Source: Escherichia phage N2. From it: DNA of 64,000 nucleotides. The stretch is from sequence record ON645936.1; one strand, given 5' to 3'. Positions 4,541 through 38,952 of the stretch are shown here, piece after piece. The position numbers and the translations under genes were made by a program. The notes beneath the pieces are model-generated. The model saw nothing but the letters and a program-made list of their open reading frames with translations, had not been told where the DNA came from and made no database searches. Each line of letters begins with the position of its first letter. The first letter of the stretch is position 1.

Positions 4541-5743
4541 TTATTTTGTAATAATGTCAAACTGTTCTTTAAAGCAGAAGCTTGAATCTTGATGCTGATA
4601 CAAAAATTCATAAGCTTTTTCACGTTCACGGTCATAAAGAGCTCGGTCAGATGACAGTTCTTTAATACGTTCAAATGTTGATTCCATGTCATTTTCATCA
4701 AACCAAACGATACCGCTATCGTGTGAAATTAATGGAGTATTATCAACACGGAATTTTAAATTTTCGCCAGTAGATTTCCAAAATACCGGAATTGTTCCAC
4801 ATGCACCAAGCTCGAGATGAGTATATTCTAAAGAACGTTGTAGATATTTTTTGTCCAACTTACTCAGCTGATAACCAAATCCGGATTTACTCATGCGTTC
4901 AAGCATTTCGCTATTTACATAACGGTCGAGAATTTGCGTCGGCAAATTAGGAGCAATTTTAATTTGGTCTACTTGGTGAAGACGATAATACTCGTATGGA
5001 ATTCCTTTTTCTTTAATAGGAATGAACGCTGGAGAACGTTCCAGACCTTCCATAATAGTACTTAGTCCTGCAGGTTTAAGATGTTTTTCATGAAAATCAA
5101 ACATCTGATAAAAACCTTTCCATGTAGTCGTACGACCAATCCAACGGTTGATATTCATGTTAATTTCAGAAACATCTTTCCAGTAGGTTGACCGAACCTT
5201 CGCAATATCCATAGGAGGCTGAAAGTTATATACTGCCGGTGCTTCTTCAATATCATCAAACAGAGAAACTGTTTCAGGATACCATTCTTTCATCAGAACT
5301 TTATTAAAATCACCATTATCAGAATGGCTAAAAATAACATCAGCTCGACGAACAGTTTCTTCTAATCCCAAATTTCGGCGCAAAGAAAGAGAAGAATGGT
5401 CATGTTGATAAACTACAACACGAACAGAAGGTTTAATGTTATCAATAATTTTTTTATAGTTATTAATAGTGTCTTCTTCAACCGAAGTAGCAGGAACTGA
5501 ATTGATAATTAGAATATCACAATCATTTACCAGCTTAAGTGTTTTATCGTATTCTTTTGCCAATAAAACTGGAATTGAAAATGATTTATAATCATGCGCG
5601 CAATTACGAGTAAATGATTTATCTTTAGCATAAACCAAAGTCACTTCATGACCATTTTTAATAAACCAATCACGTTGCTCGAGTGAGAATTTTGTTACAC
5701 CACAACCTTCAAGACCTCGAGCCATAAAAATACATACTTTCAT
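4541..5743 (-). CDS. agt: DNA alpha-glucosyltransferase
   Basis: 400 aa; N-terminus (M)KVCIFMARGLEGCGVTKFSLEQRDWFIKNGHEVTLVYAKDKSFTR recognised as T4 AGT. Confidence 0.9.
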   Translation of the reverse strand: MKVCIFMARGLEGCGVTKFSLEQRDWFIKNGHEVTLVYAKDKSFTRNCAHDYKSFSIPVLLAKEYDKTLKLVNDCDILIINSVPATSVEEDTINNYKKIIDNIKPSVRVVVYQHDHSSLSLRRNLGLEETVRRADVIFSHSDNGDFNKVLMKEWYPETVSLFDDIEEAPAVYNFQPPMDIAKVRSTYWKDVSEINMNINRWIGRTTTWKGFYQMFDFHEKHLKPAGLSTIMEGLERSPAFIPIKEKGIPYEYYRLHQVDQIKIAPNLPTQILDRYVNSEMLERMSKSGFGYQLSKLDKKYLQRSLEYTHLELGACGTIPVFWKSTGENLKFRVDNTPLISHDSGIVWFDENDMESTFERIKELSSDRALYDREREKAYEFLYQHQDSSFCFKEQFDIITK

Positions 5744-10079: not shown

Positions 10080-10571
10080 TTAATCATGTTTCCACACCCC
10101 ATCGGTATTTGACCAAAGTCGCTGATTATCTGAACCTCGCCACAGCTTTTTGGTTGGAAGATTTTTCTCATACTTCCCATCAATAATAACATCAACATAT
10201 TTAAGCATTTCTAGTTGTTTAATATCTTCAAACTTGTACCCTGTCCACAACCAAATGCTTTTATTTGGATAAAGATTTTTTACAGTTTGAACAATGCAAT
10301 GAACATCATCTCGGTTATCAGGATAAAGAGGGTCACCTCCAGTTATAGTTAATCCTTCTATATAATCATTATTCAAACATTCAATTAATTGTTCTAGTGT
10401 TTCACCAGTAAATGGAACGCCATTTCTAGCATTCCATGTTGATTTATTATAACACCCTTCGCATTTATGCAAACAACCTGTAACGAAAAGAACTGTCCTG
10501 CATCCAGGACCATTAACAAAGCAGCACGGGTATATTCTGTCATAATTCATAATAATATCCAATTTTTCCAA
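10080..10571 (-). CDS. nrdG: anaerobic ribonucleotide reductase activating protein NrdG (radical SAM)
   Basis: CLHKCEGC radical-SAM cysteine cluster; adjacent to nrdD. Confidence 0.85.
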   Translation of the reverse strand: MEKLDIIMNYDRIYPCCFVNGPGCRTVLFVTGCLHKCEGCYNKSTWNARNGVPFTGETLEQLIECLNNDYIEGLTITGGDPLYPDNRDDVHCIVQTVKNLYPNKSIWLWTGYKFEDIKQLEMLKYVDVIIDGKYEKNLPTKKLWRGSDNQRLWSNTDGVWKHD

Positions 10572-11377
10572 GCTTCATCAGTAGAATTACAGCGTTTTAG
10601 TATAAGATGTCTAGAAACTTTTATGGCATTTGAGCACTTTTTAATTGAATCATATTTAATACCGTCAACTGAAACGGTTTTGCTAGTTGGAGAAATTTTT
10701 CCATACATTGGATTTTTTGAACCAACTTGAAGTCCTTTTAAAGCTTTTGAAAGCTTTTGTCTAGATTCCAATGACATGGGAGAATTCTTTTTACCTTCAA
10801 TAATTCGCTTGCGATGAAGTTCGCGTTCTTCTTCACTCAAAGAATTGTAATATTTTTTAACACCGTTTGATATAGATAATTTATCTTTCTCAGACCGCTC
10901 TCCAGCTAATTTACTTCTAACATCTTTTCGCTTCATAGCTATGCTTACGGCTTTATTTAAATTTGCTTGATGCTCTGGCGTACGTTTATATTTCTTTAAA
11001 GCACGTGAAATAGCTATTTTAGTTTCTTCTGTTCTCTTTTTACCTTTATTTGCTAAACTATTTTTGCGGCGATGTTCAAGTGTCTGTTCATAGGCAGTTC
11101 CACCTTTTCCACCAGGTTTAATATTATATGTATTTTCTTTTAGACAATACTCTTCGGTTACAAGTTCAGCTTCTTTATCATACATTTGTTTTTCATTATC
11201 AAAAACATGTAAAATTTCTTTATTAAAATTTTTTCTACCATATTTTAATAAAGCGGCACGAATCAATGTTCCTGACCCCATATAACCGTCATTTATGTTA
11301 TCGGTGCTATGCGCACCGATATATTCCTTTGAATTAATTATATTTGTTATTTTATAAATTATATAATACCTATGCAT
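10547..11377 (-). CDS. GIY-YIG homing endonuclease (Seg-like), free-standing between nrdD and nrdG
   Basis: 276 aa; YIIYKITN...KEYIG...GYMGSG GIY-YIG module; basic C-terminal DNA-binding region; overlaps both neighbours by a few nt. Confidence 0.7.
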   Translation of the reverse strand: MHRYYIIYKITNIINSKEYIGAHSTDNINDGYMGSGTLIRAALLKYGRKNFNKEILHVFDNEKQMYDKEAELVTEEYCLKENTYNIKPGGKGGTAYEQTLEHRRKNSLANKGKKRTEETKIAISRALKKYKRTPEHQANLNKAVSIAMKRKDVRSKLAGERSEKDKLSISNGVKKYYNSLSEEERELHRKRIIEGKKNSPMSLESRQKLSKALKGLQVGSKNPMYGKISPTSKTVSVDGIKYDSIKKCSNAIKVSRHLILKRCNSTDEAWKNWILL

Positions 11378-12714
11378 GTTTTACTCGTTTTACCATTTCT
11401 TTCATTTTACCTAAATTCCATGGAACAACGCTAGGAGTTCCAAGATATCCGCATGTTCTTCTTATTGTGTTCATCTTTTTAGGATCAGTTTCTCCACAAA
11501 TAGAACAAACAAATCCGTTTTCAGTAGGAGTCATTTCATGGGTACTTCCACATGTAAAACATTTATCTACTGGCATATTAACACCAAAATAATCTAAATG
11601 TTGTGCAGCATAATCCCATACAGCCTCAAGACCTTTTAGGTTATTTTTCATATCAGGAAGTTCAACATAAGAAATGTGACCACCTGTCGCAATGAAATGA
11701 TACGGGGCTTCGCGAGAAATCTTTTCAAACGGAGTAATATTTTCTTCTACTGAAACGTGGAAACTGTTAGTATACCAGCCTTTATCGGTAACATCTTTTA
11801 CACTTCCATATTTCTCAGTATCAAGTTTACAGAAGCGATAGCACAGGTTTTCAGCAGGAGTAGAATACAAACTAAAAGCAAATCCGGTTCTTTCAGTCCA
11901 CTGCTTAAGACGAGCATTCATTTTAGTTAAAATTTCTTGTCCAATATCACGACCGACAAGAATATTCAATTCGTGAATACCAATGTATCCTAAGGACACT
12001 GAACTTCTACCGTTTTTAAATAACTCAATTATATCGTCATCAGGTTTAAGACGAACCCCGAATGCACCTTCTTGGTAAAGAATAGGAGCAACAGTCGCTT
12101 TAACTCCTTTTAAGGAACTAATTCTACACATCAAAGCTTCAAAACATAAATCCATTCGTTCATTGAACAATTCGGCAAATTTCTGTTCATTGAACTGTGT
12201 TCCAATATAAGAATCTAACGCAATACGAGGAAGATTCAGTGTTACAACGCCAAGATTATTACGTCCATCAAGAATTTCATTACCAGTGGAATCTTTCCAT
12301 ACGCCCAAGAAACTACGACAACCCATTGGAGAAACAGGAATAGATGAACCTGTGATAGCTTTATTGTTCTTAGCTGAAATAATATCAGGATACATCCTTT
12401 TGCTTGCGCACTCTAAAGCAAGCTGCTTAATATCATAGTTCGGATCGTCTTTATAAAGATTAACACCCTCTTCAACGAACATAACAAGCTTAGGGAAAAT
12501 AGGAGTTATCCCATCACGACCGAGACCTTTAATACGATTTTTCAGAATTGCTTTCTGAATCATTCGTTCAGTCCAGTCAGTTCCCGTGCCAAACGTAATT
12601 GTTACAAAAGGCGTTTGTCCATTAGAGCTGAAAAGTGTATTTACTTCATCATTATATTCAGCATGAGTCGCAAATTCATGCCCGTTTATATGAAACAACA
12701 AAATTTGGATAGTC
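11370..12714 (-). CDS. nrdD: anaerobic ribonucleotide reductase NrdD, exon 2 (3' splice site approximate)
   Basis: 443-aa open frame ending at the same stop as class III RNR; upstream end of the frame runs into the intron. Confidence 0.8.
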
Positions 12715-13446
12715 CATAGATATGCAACGTTCTTTTATAGTGCTAGGATGAAAATTTAGCGCTTTAGCTGCTTCTATATAAGACGTATACTTAATACCGT
12801 CAACAACCACATATTCAGGAACTTTATGAATAGTAGTCTTAATACTCAAAACAAGAGGATGAGTTTCGACTTCACTTTCAGTGCAATTTAAATATTCCGC
12901 TGCTTTTTTAAAACTTCTAAAAGTTTTATTTTTAAGCTTTATCGATACTTGTTTTTTACTTTTTCGACTATTGATATTATTTTGCACATGTTCCTTAGAT
13001 CTTCCGTTTTTAGCATAATATTCAGCTACAGAAGATTTTATATTGTTTTTATGAGATTCGGATAACACTTTACCCTTATGAGCATCTCTTAATTTTTGAA
13101 TATGTTCTTCAGTATCCGGATGCTTATAAAACTTTTTACCGCCTATGGATTTATTTAAACATTTTTTGCTATAAAAATATTTACGTATGACCTCTTCTTC
13201 ATGTTTTAATGCATCTTTATAACTATCAAATGTTTTTAAAATTATCCATTTAGTAGGTGTATCAGTTTTTAAGCGTTCATTTATATACTTAGATGACGTT
13301 GTGTAAGTTTTCCAGTTTGTGGGCTTGTTTTTAATTGTTCTAAATTTTTTATAACCGATATAAATGTCGCCATTAGAAAACTTAACTAAGTATGTAAATG
13401 CGTCTTTATCTTTTATTTTAGTACAACGTCTTTTTATCCATTTCAT
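12676..13446 (-). CDS. intron-encoded homing endonuclease (I-TevII-like)
   Basis: 256-aa ORF inside the nrdD intron; GDIYIGY motif; T4 nrdD intron encodes I-TevII. Confidence 0.75.
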   Translation of the reverse strand: MKWIKRRCTKIKDKDAFTYLVKFSNGDIYIGYKKFRTIKNKPTNWKTYTTSSKYINERLKTDTPTKWIILKTFDSYKDALKHEEEVIRKYFYSKKCLNKSIGGKKFYKHPDTEEHIQKLRDAHKGKVLSESHKNNIKSSVAEYYAKNGRSKEHVQNNINSRKSKKQVSIKLKNKTFRSFKKAAEYLNCTESEVETHPLVLSIKTTIHKVPEYVVVDGIKYTSYIEAAKALNFHPSTIKERCISMDYPNFVVSYKRA

Positions 13447-13694
13447 TGTTTCACCTCGTATTCATAAGATAATCTTATTTATACAAGATGACTGCTGCAT
13501 GTCGCCATGCAGATTAGACTATATCTTCATCTTTCGATGCCGGCCGTTTCGAATAGCATTAGCTTCTATTCTACACCGCTACATTCATCACGGTTAGTCG
13601 TTAGGCATTTAGTTCAAAAGAACATTTAGCACGGGATTGTCTACTAGAGAGGTTCCCCGTTTAGACCGGTTTTACATGAGCCTGAATTAAATTA
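12715..13694 (-). other. group I self-splicing intron in nrdD (boundaries within a few nt)
   Basis: conserved core ACGGGGAACCUCUCUAGUAGACAAUCCCGUGCUAAAU on minus strand at 13621-13663; P1 pairing UAUGAGU(exon)/GCUCAUG(guide) at the exon 1 end; contains an endonuclease ORF. Confidence 0.8.
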
Positions 13695-14232
13695 ACTCAT
13701 ACGCCTGGAATGCATCGTATACGTCTTTTTCTGTTTTAGATTGGGCATAATTCAATGCATCTGCGATTTGCCATTTTTCCGCGTCCTCAATATGTTTTGC
13801 ATAGGTGCGTTTAACATAAGGAGAAAGTACTTTATCTACATTCGCAAAAGTCGTTCCACCATATTGATGGGAAGCAACCTGTGCAGTAATTTGTGCCATA
13901 ATTGCAGTAGCAACGCCAATTGATTTAGGAGTTTCAATTTGAGCATTGCCTAATTTAAATCCATTCTCAAGCATCCCCTTTAAATCGACTAAACAGCAAT
14001 TAGTAAATGGAAGAGCAGGGGAATAATCAATATCGTGCACGTGAATAATTCCGCTTTCATGCGCTTTCATAATAAAAGACGGGACCATATTTTTGGCAAT
14101 GTGCTTAGACACAATACCAGCCATAAGGTCCCGTTGAGTTGGAAAAACACGAGAATCTTTATTAGCATTCTCGTTTAAAAGGTCTTTATTAGTTTTATGA
14201 ATCAATCCTTCAATTTCTTTTTCAATTGTCAT
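13687..14232 (-). CDS. nrdD: anaerobic ribonucleotide reductase NrdD, exon 1 (in-frame stop at 13687 lies in the intron)
   Basis: 181-aa N-terminal segment followed directly by group I intron core. Confidence 0.8.
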   Translation of the reverse strand: MTIEKEIEGLIHKTNKDLLNENANKDSRVFPTQRDLMAGIVSKHIAKNMVPSFIMKAHESGIIHVHDIDYSPALPFTNCCLVDLKGMLENGFKLGNAQIETPKSIGVATAIMAQITAQVASHQYGGTTFANVDKVLSPYVKRTYAKHIEDAEKWQIADALNYAQSKTEKDVYDAFQAYELI

Positions 14233-37280: not shown

Positions 37281-37332
37281 TAAGCCTTGCGGCAACCTTG
37301 TCGGGGTTCCACCTGCTAAGGCAAGTGTTTGT

Positions 37333-37423
37333 ACGAAACGCCGGGATTCGAACCCGGTTATTGAGCAGTTGACGCTACTCAATATTTTAAAAGGCCATAT
37401 CTCGACCATATCCGAACGTTCCG
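37333..37423 (-). ncRNA. tRNA-like structured small RNA (possible rnaC/rnaD-type stable RNA)
   Basis: canonical T-arm CCGGG-UUCGAAU-CCCGG with a 7-bp acceptor-like stem (CGGAACG/CGUUUCG) but ~91 nt and no clean anticodon arm. Confidence 0.3.
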
Positions 37424-37596
37424 TCAAAAACGCTACTCGGTTTACGGCAAAGATATTTCCTCGAATCGATAATTCGGTGCGCCGTTTCTGCTGTGATGTA
37501 AGGGGGCATTAACCGATCGTAAAGATTTGTTAACACAATTCCTTACCCAGGGAACATCAGTCCGACGACTTACCGGTAGCGACCCGGTTTCTCATT

Positions 37597-37673
37597 TGGT
37601 CGAGGCAGAAGGATTCTAACCTTCAACCAACGGATTAGAAATCCGTTGCTCTATACAATTGAGCTATGCCCCG
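37597..37673 (-). tRNA. tRNA-Arg (anticodon UCU), CCA encoded
   Basis: manual fold: acceptor CGGGGCA/UGCCUCG, anticodon stem ACGGA/UCCGU, loop UUUCUAA, T-arm GAAGG-UUAGAAU-CCUUC. Confidence 0.75.
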
Positions 37674-37676
37674 TAA

Positions 37677-38342
37677 TTAAAATTTCATTTTTCGACCTTT
37701 AAACCATCCTTCTGGAATTGGGTCAGTTTTCTTAATACGTTTAGAAACTTTTTCATCTAATGAATGAATCCACATCATACCGAATTGGGAATTCTTTTCA
37801 CCTTGTTGGTGTTTATTTCTGGCGTGAGATTCTTTCATTTTATTAATAGTTTCAGGAGTATGATGCTTATTTAAAAATCTGCTATTATTTAAAAATTTTT
37901 CCCTGTATTCAGGAGTTGACCACAAGCGTTTAAATACATTTGAACCATGTTTACGATATTTTTCTTGAAGTAAAATATCATTTTTAAAACGTGACTTAAA
38001 CGATTTAGCTCCTTTTAAACTAGCGTCTTTCTTCTGATTTAGCATCTCAGGAATATTTAAATGGTCCCATCCACCTTCACCGCCAAGTTTTAAATTATAC
38101 ACATCTGGTCTATTTAAAAACTCTTCTGTGACAATATTTTTCTCGGCTTCAAGCATAGATTCTTTATCATCAAAATACTCTAATATTTCTTTAGAGAAAT
38201 TTTCTATACCATACTTGTCTTGGGCTCTTTTTAATAATTTACCAGAACCCATATATCCATCATCTAAATTTTCGGTAGAATGCACGCCAATATAAATTTT
38301 ATTATTAATTTTATTTGTTATTTTATAAGTGTAATGGAACAT
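37677..38342 (-). CDS. segB: GIY-YIG homing endonuclease SegB
   Basis: 221 aa; YTYKITNKINNKIYIGVH...GYMGSG; located inside the tRNA cluster as T4 segB. Confidence 0.85.
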   Translation of the reverse strand: MFHYTYKITNKINNKIYIGVHSTENLDDGYMGSGKLLKRAQDKYGIENFSKEILEYFDDKESMLEAEKNIVTEEFLNRPDVYNLKLGGEGGWDHLNIPEMLNQKKDASLKGAKSFKSRFKNDILLQEKYRKHGSNVFKRLWSTPEYREKFLNNSRFLNKHHTPETINKMKESHARNKHQQGEKNSQFGMMWIHSLDEKVSKRIKKTDPIPEGWFKGRKMKF

Positions 38343-38383: not shown

Positions 38384-38455
38384 TGGCCCTGGGTGGAATT
38401 GAACCACCATCTGGCGATTATGAGTCGCTTGCTTGAACCTTCCAGCTACAGGGCC
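38384..38455 (-). tRNA. tRNA with CAU anticodon (Ile2/Met-type)
   Basis: manual fold: acceptor GGCCCUG/CAGGGCC, anticodon loop CUCAUAA, T-arm GGUGG-UUCAAUU-CCACC. Confidence 0.75.
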
Positions 38456-38456
38456 T

Positions 38457-38532
38457 TGGTGCTGATTGACGGAATCGAACCGCCGACCTTCTCATTACAA
38501 GTGAGTTGCTCTACCTACTGAGCTAAATCAGC
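38457..38532 (-). tRNA. tRNA-Thr (UGU), CCA encoded
   Basis: acceptor GCUGAUU/AAUCAGC, anticodon loop CUUGUAA, T-arm GGCGG-UUCGAUU-CCGUC. Confidence 0.8.
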
Positions 38533-38539
38533 GAAATTA

Positions 38540-38626
38540 CGGAGGCGATAGGATTCGAACCTATGAGTCGCCGGAGCGACTGCCGGTTTTCAAGACCGGT
38601 GCATTAAACCACTCTGCCACGCCTCC
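38540..38626 (-). tRNA. tRNA-Ser (UGA), long variable arm
   Basis: acceptor GGAGGCG/CGCCUCC, anticodon stem-loop CCGGU-CUUGAAA-ACCGG, 87 nt. Confidence 0.8.
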
Positions 38627-38628
38627 AG

Positions 38629-38702
38629 TCTCCATACAAGGATTTGAACCTTGGACCTCCTGATCCCAAATCAGGCGCTCTACCAAACTGAGCTACACGG
38701 AG
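38629..38702 (-). tRNA. tRNA-Pro (UGG)
   Basis: acceptor CUCCGUG/UAUGGAG (two G-U pairs), anticodon loop UUUGGGA, T-arm CAAGG-UUCAAAU-CCUUG. Confidence 0.75.
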
Positions 38703-38712
38703 TAAATTAAAT

Positions 38713-38786
<74 letters not shown>

Positions 38787-38791
38787 AAATT

Positions 38792-38878
38792 TGGTGCGAG
38801 AAGTGGGACTCGAACCCACAAGGAAATCATTCCGCAGCATTTTAAGTGCTGTGCCTTTACCAATTTGACCATTCTCGC
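38792..38878 (-). tRNA. tRNA-Leu (UAA), long variable arm, CCA encoded
   Basis: acceptor GCGAGAA/UUCUCGC, anticodon stem-loop CAGCA-CUUAAAA-UGCUG, 87 nt. Confidence 0.8.
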
Positions 38879-38879
38879 G

Positions 38880-38952
38880 CTGGGAATAAAGGACTCGAAC
38901 CTTTGCATCCTGGAATCAAAATCCAGTGCCTTACCAACTTGGCTAATTCCCA
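38880..38952 (-). tRNA. tRNA-Gln (UUG)
   Basis: acceptor UGGGAAU/AUUCCCA, anticodon stem-loop CUGGA-UUUUGAU-UCCAG. Confidence 0.8.

Follow-up and report, generated by a model that had tools for sequence, protein, structure and literature searches.

The window, the whole 64,000-nt stretch of DNA analysed here, belongs to a Tequatrovirus (T4-like phage). On its minus strand it carries, in order, gp49, nrdD exon 1, a group I intron, nrdD exon 2, segH and nrdG. The features of the locus are:

14232-13695, minus strand: nrdD exon 1, 538 nt, codons 1-179 and the first base of codon 180
13694-12650, minus strand: group I intron, 1045 nt (T4 intron: 1033 nt), ends set by alignment to intronless alleles and T4
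13694-13495, minus strand: ribozyme core P1-P9 (the Rfam match, 13730-13495, takes in some exon)
13446-12676, minus strand: gene for the intron GIY-YIG homing endonuclease, 256 aa, by sequence a sister lineage of I-TevII
12649-11370, minus strand: nrdD exon 2, 1280 nt, stop codon included
11377-10547, minus strand: segH, free-standing gene for a predicted GIY-YIG homing endonuclease of 276 aa
10550-10080, minus strand: nrdG, activase, 156 aa, its ATG inside the ATGA stop overlap of segH

The open reading frames underlying these calls (14232-13687; 13446-12676, 256 aa; 12701-11370; 11377-10547, 276 aa) lie where an initial annotation of this DNA had placed them. To the span it gave to the locus, 11370-14232, nrdG (10080-10550) should be added if its claim of an overlap with that gene is kept.

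Exon 1, whose ATG overlaps the gp49 stop, is 94.8% identical to T4 exon 1 and covers Pfam NRDD profile positions 1-141. Exon 2 is 95.6% identical to its T4 counterpart when two divergent ends are left out, and covers profile positions 145-562 plus the Gly_radical domain. Joined at 13695|12649, the exons encode a NrdD of 605 aa. Alignment to a class III ribonucleotide reductase had been proposed as a check on the split-gene claim: residues 1-604 align without gaps to T4 NrdD (PDB 1h78), the NRDD domain becomes continuous, and the glycyl-radical motif RRTCGYLG is present at the C-terminal end.

We place the 3′ splice site at 12650|12649 because eight intronless nrdD alleles, aligned at the nucleotide level, and the gapless protein alignment both put it there. 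Intronless alleles read ...TATGA(A/G)T|ATGAAGTAAATAC..., which sets the start of exon 2 at 12649. The insertion falls inside codon 180 (...AYE|YEV...; GAGU|AUGAA), as in the T4 sunY/nrdD intron; the base before the 5′ splice site is U and the last intron base is G (G12650). The ligated exon junction is predicted to read ...GCGUAUGAGU-AUGAAGUAAAU..., which can also be written ...GCGTATGAGT|ATGAAGTAAATAC....

The intron ORF had been thought to run past the 3′ splice site into exon 2. Its stop codon (12678-12676) instead falls 26 nt short, leaving one further intron segment:

12675-12650, minus strand: 3′-terminal piece of the intron, following the ORF stop

Upstream of 12649 the exon-2 frame continues without a stop for 52 nt into the intron, as far as a TTG at 12701, which looks like an ORF overlap. 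That frame overlaps the end of the intron ORF at 12676, yet a true crossing of the 3′ splice site by the ORF, or a splice site upstream of 12676, is extremely improbable, given the exon-2 start in intronless alleles, the lack of any counterpart of 12701-12650 in any intronless nrdD or in 1h78, and a matching layout in T4 and two metagenomic lineages, where 21-39 nt separate the ORF stop from the conserved AAUG|AUGAA.

The intron itself was found in a local scan with Rfam RF00028 (Intron_gpI), the covariance-model check suggested with the initial annotation: the match at 13730-13495 (minus strand) covers the full model (1-253) and scores 70.6 bits (E 1.3e-17; gathering score 50). A scan of the whole 64-kb window at gathering threshold returned tRNAs only and missed the intron. 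The 37-nt core motif has a single exact occurrence, at 13624-13660 on the minus strand, within 3 nt of the position first given for the core (13621-13663), and 0 matches in shuffles. The proposed pairing of the exon 1 end with an internal guide is likewise present:

13701-13675, minus strand: P1, exon-1 UAUGAGU (13701-13695) pairing with the internal guide GCUCAUG (13681-13675)

This helix has seven pairs, with U13695·G13681 as the splice-site pair.

The endonuclease ORF within the intron was described at the outset as I-TevII-like, and its product does align to T4 I-TevII, at 56% identity (256 of 258 aa, E 1e-101). It has the GIY-YIG catalytic fold and residues, and Y29, G31, E83 and N98 are invariant among 14 relatives. 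Such conservation suggests that the enzyme probably cleaves its target. A word-indexed search of 5.8 billion proteins yielded only two 90% clusters at E<=1e-5, those of the window endonuclease and of I-TevII, and an IMG/VR scan with the endonuclease gave no confirmed relatives. Sequence searches of the PDB with both endonucleases of the locus gave no meaningful matches; since the PDB holds I-TevI (1ln0, 1i3j), the window endonuclease has no detectable sequence similarity to that enzyme, and a Foldseek match to the I-TevI DNA-binding domain was weak (E 0.46). The T4 td intron, which encodes I-TevI, also differs in host gene and in where the ORF lies within the intron.

Three features precede the endonuclease gene:

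13491-13451, minus strand: hairpin masking the ribosome-binding site (RBS), covering the endonuclease Shine-Dalgarno GAGG (13457-13454)
13483-13476, minus strand: T4 late-promoter-like TATAAATA, inside the RBS-masking hairpin
13470-13449, minus strand: putative ‘operator’ resembling the homing site, directly before the endonuclease ATG

The hairpin has a predicted energy of -17.3 kcal/mol (z -5.1), and 0/200 shuffles fold equally well; its T4 counterpart, at -15.5 kcal/mol (z -5.7), also contains TATAAATA. A regulatory role for such a hairpin has been described for I-TevII (PMC2988022). The operator-like site matches the intronless nrdD homing site at 17 of 22 positions, modestly beyond chance (equalled by 4/200 shuffles). 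Its position equals that of the putative I-TevII operator (PMC2988022), and T4 likewise has a homing-site-like sequence before the ATG.

The resemblance to T4 invites the reading that the element is nothing other than the nrdD intron of T4, I-TevII included, which is already characterized. Host gene, insertion position within the codon, and the order of core, GIY-YIG ORF and short 3′ tail are all the same, and the ORFs are of similar length (256 versus 258 aa). Yet the intron, 12 nt longer than T4's, shares only 64% DNA identity with it and the endonucleases 56% protein identity, within exons that are ~95% identical to T4. With the window intron as query, megablast found T4 matching over only 42 nt, located in the td intron. 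Database copies fall into two discrete classes, at >=95% or <=57% identity, and the window intron is common to 43 independent records, which argues against a sequencing or assembly error over 1 kb. Direct alignment and the megablast result led us to reject T4's own intron; the chance that it is the right reading is negligible. Judged by sequence, the intron belongs with its endonuclease to a deeply diverged sister lineage of the T4 intron and I-TevII, distinct from the T4 element. The initial annotation had missed this distinction. A literature search, with slight coverage of subscription journals, found no description of a variant I-TevII lineage.

Among phage genomes the two intron types occupy one site without intermediates: the T4 type in 25 records and the window type in ~44, with ~610 of 683 related records intronless. 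In most of the ~44 genomes the endonuclease ORF shows 99.6-100% identity. It is not always maintained, since a few genomes hold a broken copy (in F1 and 236Ecol005PP the match is split in two). Further relatives come from metagenomes: P0003 and P0004, full-length at 36-37% identity, sit in group I introns (66-82 bits) at the same codon of nrdD genes that are far more divergent, on short contigs.

Comparison across these lineages bears on the fold. Relative to the T4 intron, 13/53 predicted pairs are compensatory and 0 are broken; P6a, P7.1, P7.2 and P8 have sequences unlike those of T4 and are preserved by compensatory changes. Over four lineages 18/49 pairs are compensatory. The P1 exon and guide are counted as covarying because an A-U pair turns into U-A in the metagenomic lineages; P7 (GACUA/UAGUC) is invariant and therefore uninformative on covariation. 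In the 3′ tail the motifs U-N-GCGA and GAAYAY(A)AAUG|AUGAA are kept in all four. The window's tail can form a local stem CAUGA/UCAUG (-7.6 kcal/mol, z -1.9), and each lineage is able to form a stem round the conserved UNGCGA loop. The stems stand in two alignment registers, so no formal covariation count applies; RNAalifold on the 3′ intron tail gave no consensus helix.

From this conservation we infer that the intron would be spliced. The alternative is that nrdD is split without splicing, as two separate polypeptides or a dead gene. SP21535, IME537 and others are annotated with a 181-aa CDS and a 443-aa CDS, and phage Aeh1 is known to have a split nrdA that is functional without splicing (PMC3045599). 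Against this, the RNA between the exons scores highly as a group I ribozyme, with helices preserved by compensatory changes, and the ‘443-aa’ CDS starts at a TTG inside the intron, a start that lacks homology support. The exons meet exactly at the intronless junction, both are ~95% identical to T4, and the protein round the junction is unchanged. We consider an unspliced nrdD very improbable. The annotation implied by the spliced reading is a single nrdD CDS, join(14232..13695, 12649..11370), accompanied by features for the intron, its endonuclease and segH. Among GenBank relatives, many show two ‘NrdD’ CDSs or name segH ‘segD’.

The second element lies downstream. As had been reported for this free-standing GIY-YIG gene, it adjoins exon 2 and has an overlap at each end: its ATG and the nrdD stop share 8 nt (ATGCATAG), and its TGA overlaps the nrdG ATG as ATGA. 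Comparison with Seg genes, which had been suggested, identifies it as segH, 100% identical to PP01 segH and 99.8% to LZ2 segH (AY262139.2). The protein matches Pfam NUMOD3 and, weakly, I-TevI_DNA-bd. Its score against SegE_GIY-YIG, 18.6 bits, is below the cut-off of 25; a YIIY-x10-YIG motif can be seen on inspection. The window also encodes a SegB-like protein, with which residues 4-93 of SegH share 53% identity (E 3e-31). The two endonucleases of the locus had been assigned to different lineages. This stands at the level of subfamilies, not of families, because both are predicted GIY-YIG/NUMOD endonucleases and are 29% identical (E 7e-10). NrdG matches Fer4_12 (4e-48) and Radical_SAM and equals T4, fPS-2 and IME537 NrdG in length.

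SegH of T4-related phages was reportedly the subject of work by Sandegren, Nord & Sjoberg in 2005 (NAR 33:6203), with the LZ2 gene deposited as AY262139. The window's segH shows essentially no difference from it, at 99.8% DNA identity and in the same slot between nrdD and nrdG. In T4 this slot holds mobC, whose start and stop codons likewise overlap both neighbours; mobC belongs to the HNH family, in contrast to the GIY-YIG segH, and mobC alleles have the standard NrdD C-terminus. Intron and segH assort independently, their combinations varying among fPS-2, IME537, LZ2 and RB7. LZ2 and RB7 have segH but are intronless, whereas the window has segH with the variant intron, a combination found in at least 13 records at 99-100% coverage.

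Each element is associated with an altered stretch of nrdD:

12642-12621, minus strand: synonymous tract, six substitutions, exon-2 +8 to +29, specific to the window's intron lineage
11438-11370, minus strand: replaced nrdD 3′ end, last 22 codons, TPSVVPWNLGKMKEMVKRVKHA, which travels with segH

The synonymous tract is common to the window and IME537, differs from the T4-type flank and from the eight intronless alleles, and leaves the protein unchanged. The replaced 3′ end, with 57% DNA identity to T4, was present at 5/5 segH-positive and 0/6 segH-negative loci, irrespective of intron state. The 5′ region of nrdG, considered as a second segH-linked tract, is variable and does not track with segH.

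Such tracts could have been left behind passively by co-conversion from a divergent donor. Alternatively, they could be changes selected for cleavage resistance of intron-bearing or recombinant alleles, a possibility that we regard as doubtful. In its favour, both intron lineages depart from the intronless consensus at three shared wobble positions (+14, +17 and +20), and the NrdD tail swap linked to segH is a like pattern at the opposite end of the gene. Bell-Pedersen et al. are said to have mapped the I-TevII cut site, in 1990, to around +13 to +15. [quoted passage not shown] We think it improbable that the fuller claim holds, namely that the 256-aa enzyme is a natural, uncharacterized I-TevII sister long in circulation at the nrdD site and that both the exon-2 tract (+8 to +29) and the altered NrdD tail linked to segH are selected target-site immunity alleles, not neutral co-conversion scars. 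If it were true, the tracts would be traces of an arms race that pits rival homing endonucleases against the reductase gene, and the window enzyme and I-TevII might tolerate sequence variation at the cut site to different degrees.

We are confident that this is a T4-like phage's class III ribonucleotide reductase operon (nrdD-nrdG) and that it carries two independent selfish elements, a mobile group I intron of a lineage sister to T4's, and segH. This architecture is textbook for T4-like phages, already known, and involves no new principle. The compensatory pairs, the RBS-masking hairpin and the synonymous tracts by the insertion site fit what an active, mobile intron would leave in the sequence. 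In the mechanism that we propose, the ribozyme would fold and excise itself from the pre-mRNA, restoring the 605-aa NrdD. In read-through transcripts the hairpin would hide the endonuclease RBS, which would become accessible only when transcription starts at the internal late promoter. In a mixed infection the endonuclease would cut intronless nrdD alleles slightly inside exon 2, and repair would transfer to the recipient the intron together with some tens of bases of adjoining exon. The segH gene is translationally coupled to nrdD and nrdG, and the replaced coding sequence for the last 22 NrdD residues goes with it.

Sandegren and Sjoberg (2004, JBC 279:22218) reportedly held that such introns are old and were transferred recently; the two diverged intron versions agree with that published view. 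The finding is of modest value: T4-like phages hold two deeply diverged versions of one mobile intron inside near-identical exons. They offer a natural pair for studying drift in a GIY-YIG homing endonuclease and its ribozyme under a constant target.

Several Tequatrovirus genomes, among them GRNsp7, SP21535 and CE1, match the 4.8 kb around the nrdD locus at 98% identity, and the window is thus from a T4-like phage. The minus strand carries every gene of the locus, in this order:

14702-14229, minus strand, gp49
14232-13687, minus strand, NrdD N-terminal ORF
13446-12676, minus strand, intron ORF, 256 aa
12701-11370, minus strand, NrdD C-terminal ORF
11377-10547, minus strand, free-standing ORF, 276 aa
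start ATG 10550, minus strand, nrdG, last in order, after the 276-aa ORF

The ATG at 10550 is the true nrdG start, giving 156 aa as in T4, fPS-2 and IME537. This architecture is already known, with precedents in the I-TevII-encoding sunY/nrdD intron of T4 and in segH standing in for mobC. The initial annotation, which had nrdD split by a group I intron with an I-TevII-like ORF and followed by a free-standing GIY-YIG gene, was largely correct in observation and right in outline in interpretation; its error was the 3′ splice site.

The proposed 37-nt intron core has a single exact match, at 13624-13660 (minus strand), and is matched in none of 100 shuffles. A local Rfam scan finds Intron_gpI at 13730-13495 (E 1.3e-17; 70.6 bits, where the gathering score is 50). 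The group I intron (12650-13730) is absent from the output of the whole-window 64-kb scan at the gathering threshold, apparently lost to speed filters; negative whole-window Rfam scans are not to be trusted for ORF-bearing introns. The proposed P1 also holds: it is formed by UAUGAGU (13701-13695) and GCUCAUG (13681-13675) and puts a U·G pair at the splice site.

Splice sites were placed by alignment to T4 and eight intronless nrdD alleles (JE01, RB33, RB7, SP18, JS09, p000y, S143_2 and LZ2), after U13695 (5′) and after G12650 (3′), yielding an intron of 1045 nt. The joined exons (1818 nt, 605 aa) encode a continuous NrdD: residues 1-604 align gaplessly, through the AFQAYE/YEVNTL junction, with the sequence of the T4 NrdD crystal structure 1h78. 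Exon 1 covers Pfam NRDD profile positions 1-141 and exon 2 continues contiguously with 145-562; the protein also has the Gly_radical domain. Given a 3′ splice site after G12650, the intron ORF does not run into exon 2 as had been thought; its stop codon (12678-12676) comes 26 nt before that site. By chance the exon-2 frame is open 52 nt into the intron, and this explains the '443-aa NrdD' that several GenBank records begin at an intron TTG. Close GenBank relatives split nrdD into two CDSs, the downstream one from this TTG (PQ615101, 2221-3552 and 4538-5083; MT179807), and the RB3, RB7 and RB10 records label segH 'segD'; both look like annotation errors.

DNA identity to T4 is 94.8% in exon 1 and 95.6% in the bulk of exon 2, against 64.2% for the whole intron (5′ core, 68%; endonuclease ORF, 63%), which rules out that the intron is T4's own nrdD intron. 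The intron endonuclease is 56% identical to I-TevII over its full length. The intron and its endonuclease form a lineage that is sister to the T4 element and common in sequenced genomes; no description of it was found in the searchable literature, whose reach does not extend to key papers. In a megablast search with the intron, the sole T4 match was a 42-nt identity in the td intron core. This stretch (13624-13665) is 100% identical to the td intron, and adjoining core segments match introns of FelixO1-like phages (97.6% over 42 nt) and of Campylobacter and rV5-like phages (about 80-82% over about 120-130 nt). Such matches across unrelated phages point to ribozyme modules in common.

Between the window and T4 introns 13 of 53 predicted base pairs are changed on both sides and none is broken; P3, P4, P6a, P7.1 and P7.2 all have such changes. 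Adding two metagenomic lineages brings the compensatory count to 18 of 49 pairs, and in P1 an A-U pair becomes U-A through matched changes in exon and guide sequence; P7 (GACUA/UAGUC) is invariant and so uninformative on covariation. The endonuclease gene is 99.6-100% identical in most carrier genomes and broken in F1 and 236Ecol005PP. Its product scores above the Pfam cut-off for SegE_GIY-YIG and also matches NUMOD1; Foldseek yielded no more than a weak hit, on the DNA-binding domain of I-TevI. Upstream of its ATG is a hairpin (-17.3 kcal/mol, z -5.1) with the Shine-Dalgarno sequence in the 3′ arm and a late-promoter-like motif, TATAAATA, within it. I-TevII has a like arrangement, its ribosome binding site being exposed in late transcripts only (PMC2988022). 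Over 13470-13449, 17 of 22 positions agree with the intronless homing site, and as good a match arises in 4 of 200 shuffles; this recalls both the operator proposed for I-TevII (PMC2988022) and the resemblance to the target that Loizos et al. are credited with noting in intron sequence on either side of the ORF (PMC3984707). Covariation, endonuclease conservation and these upstream features are evidence, at the sequence level, for a functional intron element.

The NrdD protein near the junction is identical at 12 loci, the only exceptions being single changes, one in JS09 and one in p000y, towards the far end of the compared stretch. Synonymous sites at +8 to +29 of exon 2 fall into three haplotypes: an intronless consensus (ATGAAGTAAATACTCTCTTTAGTTCAAAC), a T4-type flank (...GTGAACACGTTATTCAGTTCAAAC) and one shared by the window and IME537 (...GTAAATACACTTTTCAGCTCTAAT). 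Neither intron lineage has the intronless base at +14, +17 or +20. Position -2 is G in intron-bearing alleles, as P1 (GAGU) needs, and A in seven of the eight intronless alleles, JS09 having G. Co-conversion of donor exon sequence during homing is the simplest reading of the exon-2 haplotypes, though they may instead reflect selection for resistance to cleavage.

The free-standing gene does overlap the nrdD stop (ATGCATAG) and the nrdG start (ATGA). It is segH, 100% identical to PP01 segH and 99.8% to LZ2 segH (AY262139.2, a record carrying the segH annotation); the name is the one in the title of Sandegren et al. 2005. SegH shares only 29% identity with the intron enzyme. Over its first 90 residues it has 53% identity to the N-terminal domain of a SegB-like GIY-YIG protein of the window (221 aa; 37677-38342, minus strand), whose gene lies, like T4 segB, between a tRNA-Arg (37597-37673) and a seven-tRNA block (38384-38952). 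Nearby, ARAGORN calls a 94-nt 'tRNA-Lys(ttt)' (37331-37424, minus strand) where the Rfam tRNA model has no match; it may be a spurious prediction or a small stable RNA like those by the T4 tRNA cluster. In T4 the slot held by segH is instead filled by mobC (HNH). T4 mobC opens, at about 5015-5039 of our T4 locus, with ATGAATTATGACAGAATCTAT (MNYDRIY), its first seven codons the same as those of nrdG, whose start seems to have been duplicated by the mobC insertion.

The last 22 nrdD codons (11370-11438), directly after the glycyl-radical motif RRTCGYLG, occur in two very different versions. The tail is TPSVVPWNLGKMKEMVKRVKHA in all five segH-positive loci and NPNERGFNLGKNKEIMHRVKHQ in all six segH-negative loci, irrespective of intron state. 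This perfect tracking over 11 loci (5/5 versus 0/6) indicates that segH travels with a rewritten nrdD 3′ end. The intron and segH assort independently among the phages compared: LZ2 and RB7 have segH only, IME537 the window-type intron only, and fPS-2 the T4-type intron, segH and a third endonuclease gene upstream of nrdD; the window's combination of intron and segH is in at least 13 records. The third endonuclease gene of Yersinia phage fPS-2 (5062-5883) lies between gp49 and nrdD, so that one reductase gene is surrounded by three selfish nucleases.

In the phage collection the T4-type intron is in 25 records (T4 isolates plus PST, RB55, RB59, U5, fPS-2, G8, EC128 and Manna) and the window type in about 44 at protein identity of at least 95%, with no endonucleases between 57% and 95%; the nrdD junction is uninterrupted in about 610 of 683 related records. 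At E<=1e-5, only the T4-type and window-type clusters came out of a word-indexed search of 5.8 billion proteins. An exhaustive profile search added two full-length metagenomic relatives (P0003 and P0004; 36-37% identity), in whose contigs a group I intron (66-82 bits) with the endonuclease separates NrdD exons 1 and 2. The contigs are short (L013, 433-1528; L016, 876-1988). Directly ahead of the 3′ splice site, U-N-GCGA and GAAYAY(A)AAUG are preserved in the intron tail of each of the four lineages. The P0003 and P0004 introns interrupt the same codon (LE/YE, GAGT/ATGAA) in much more divergent host nrdD genes, which argues that the association of intron plus endonuclease with this exact nrdD site is old, with several lineages.
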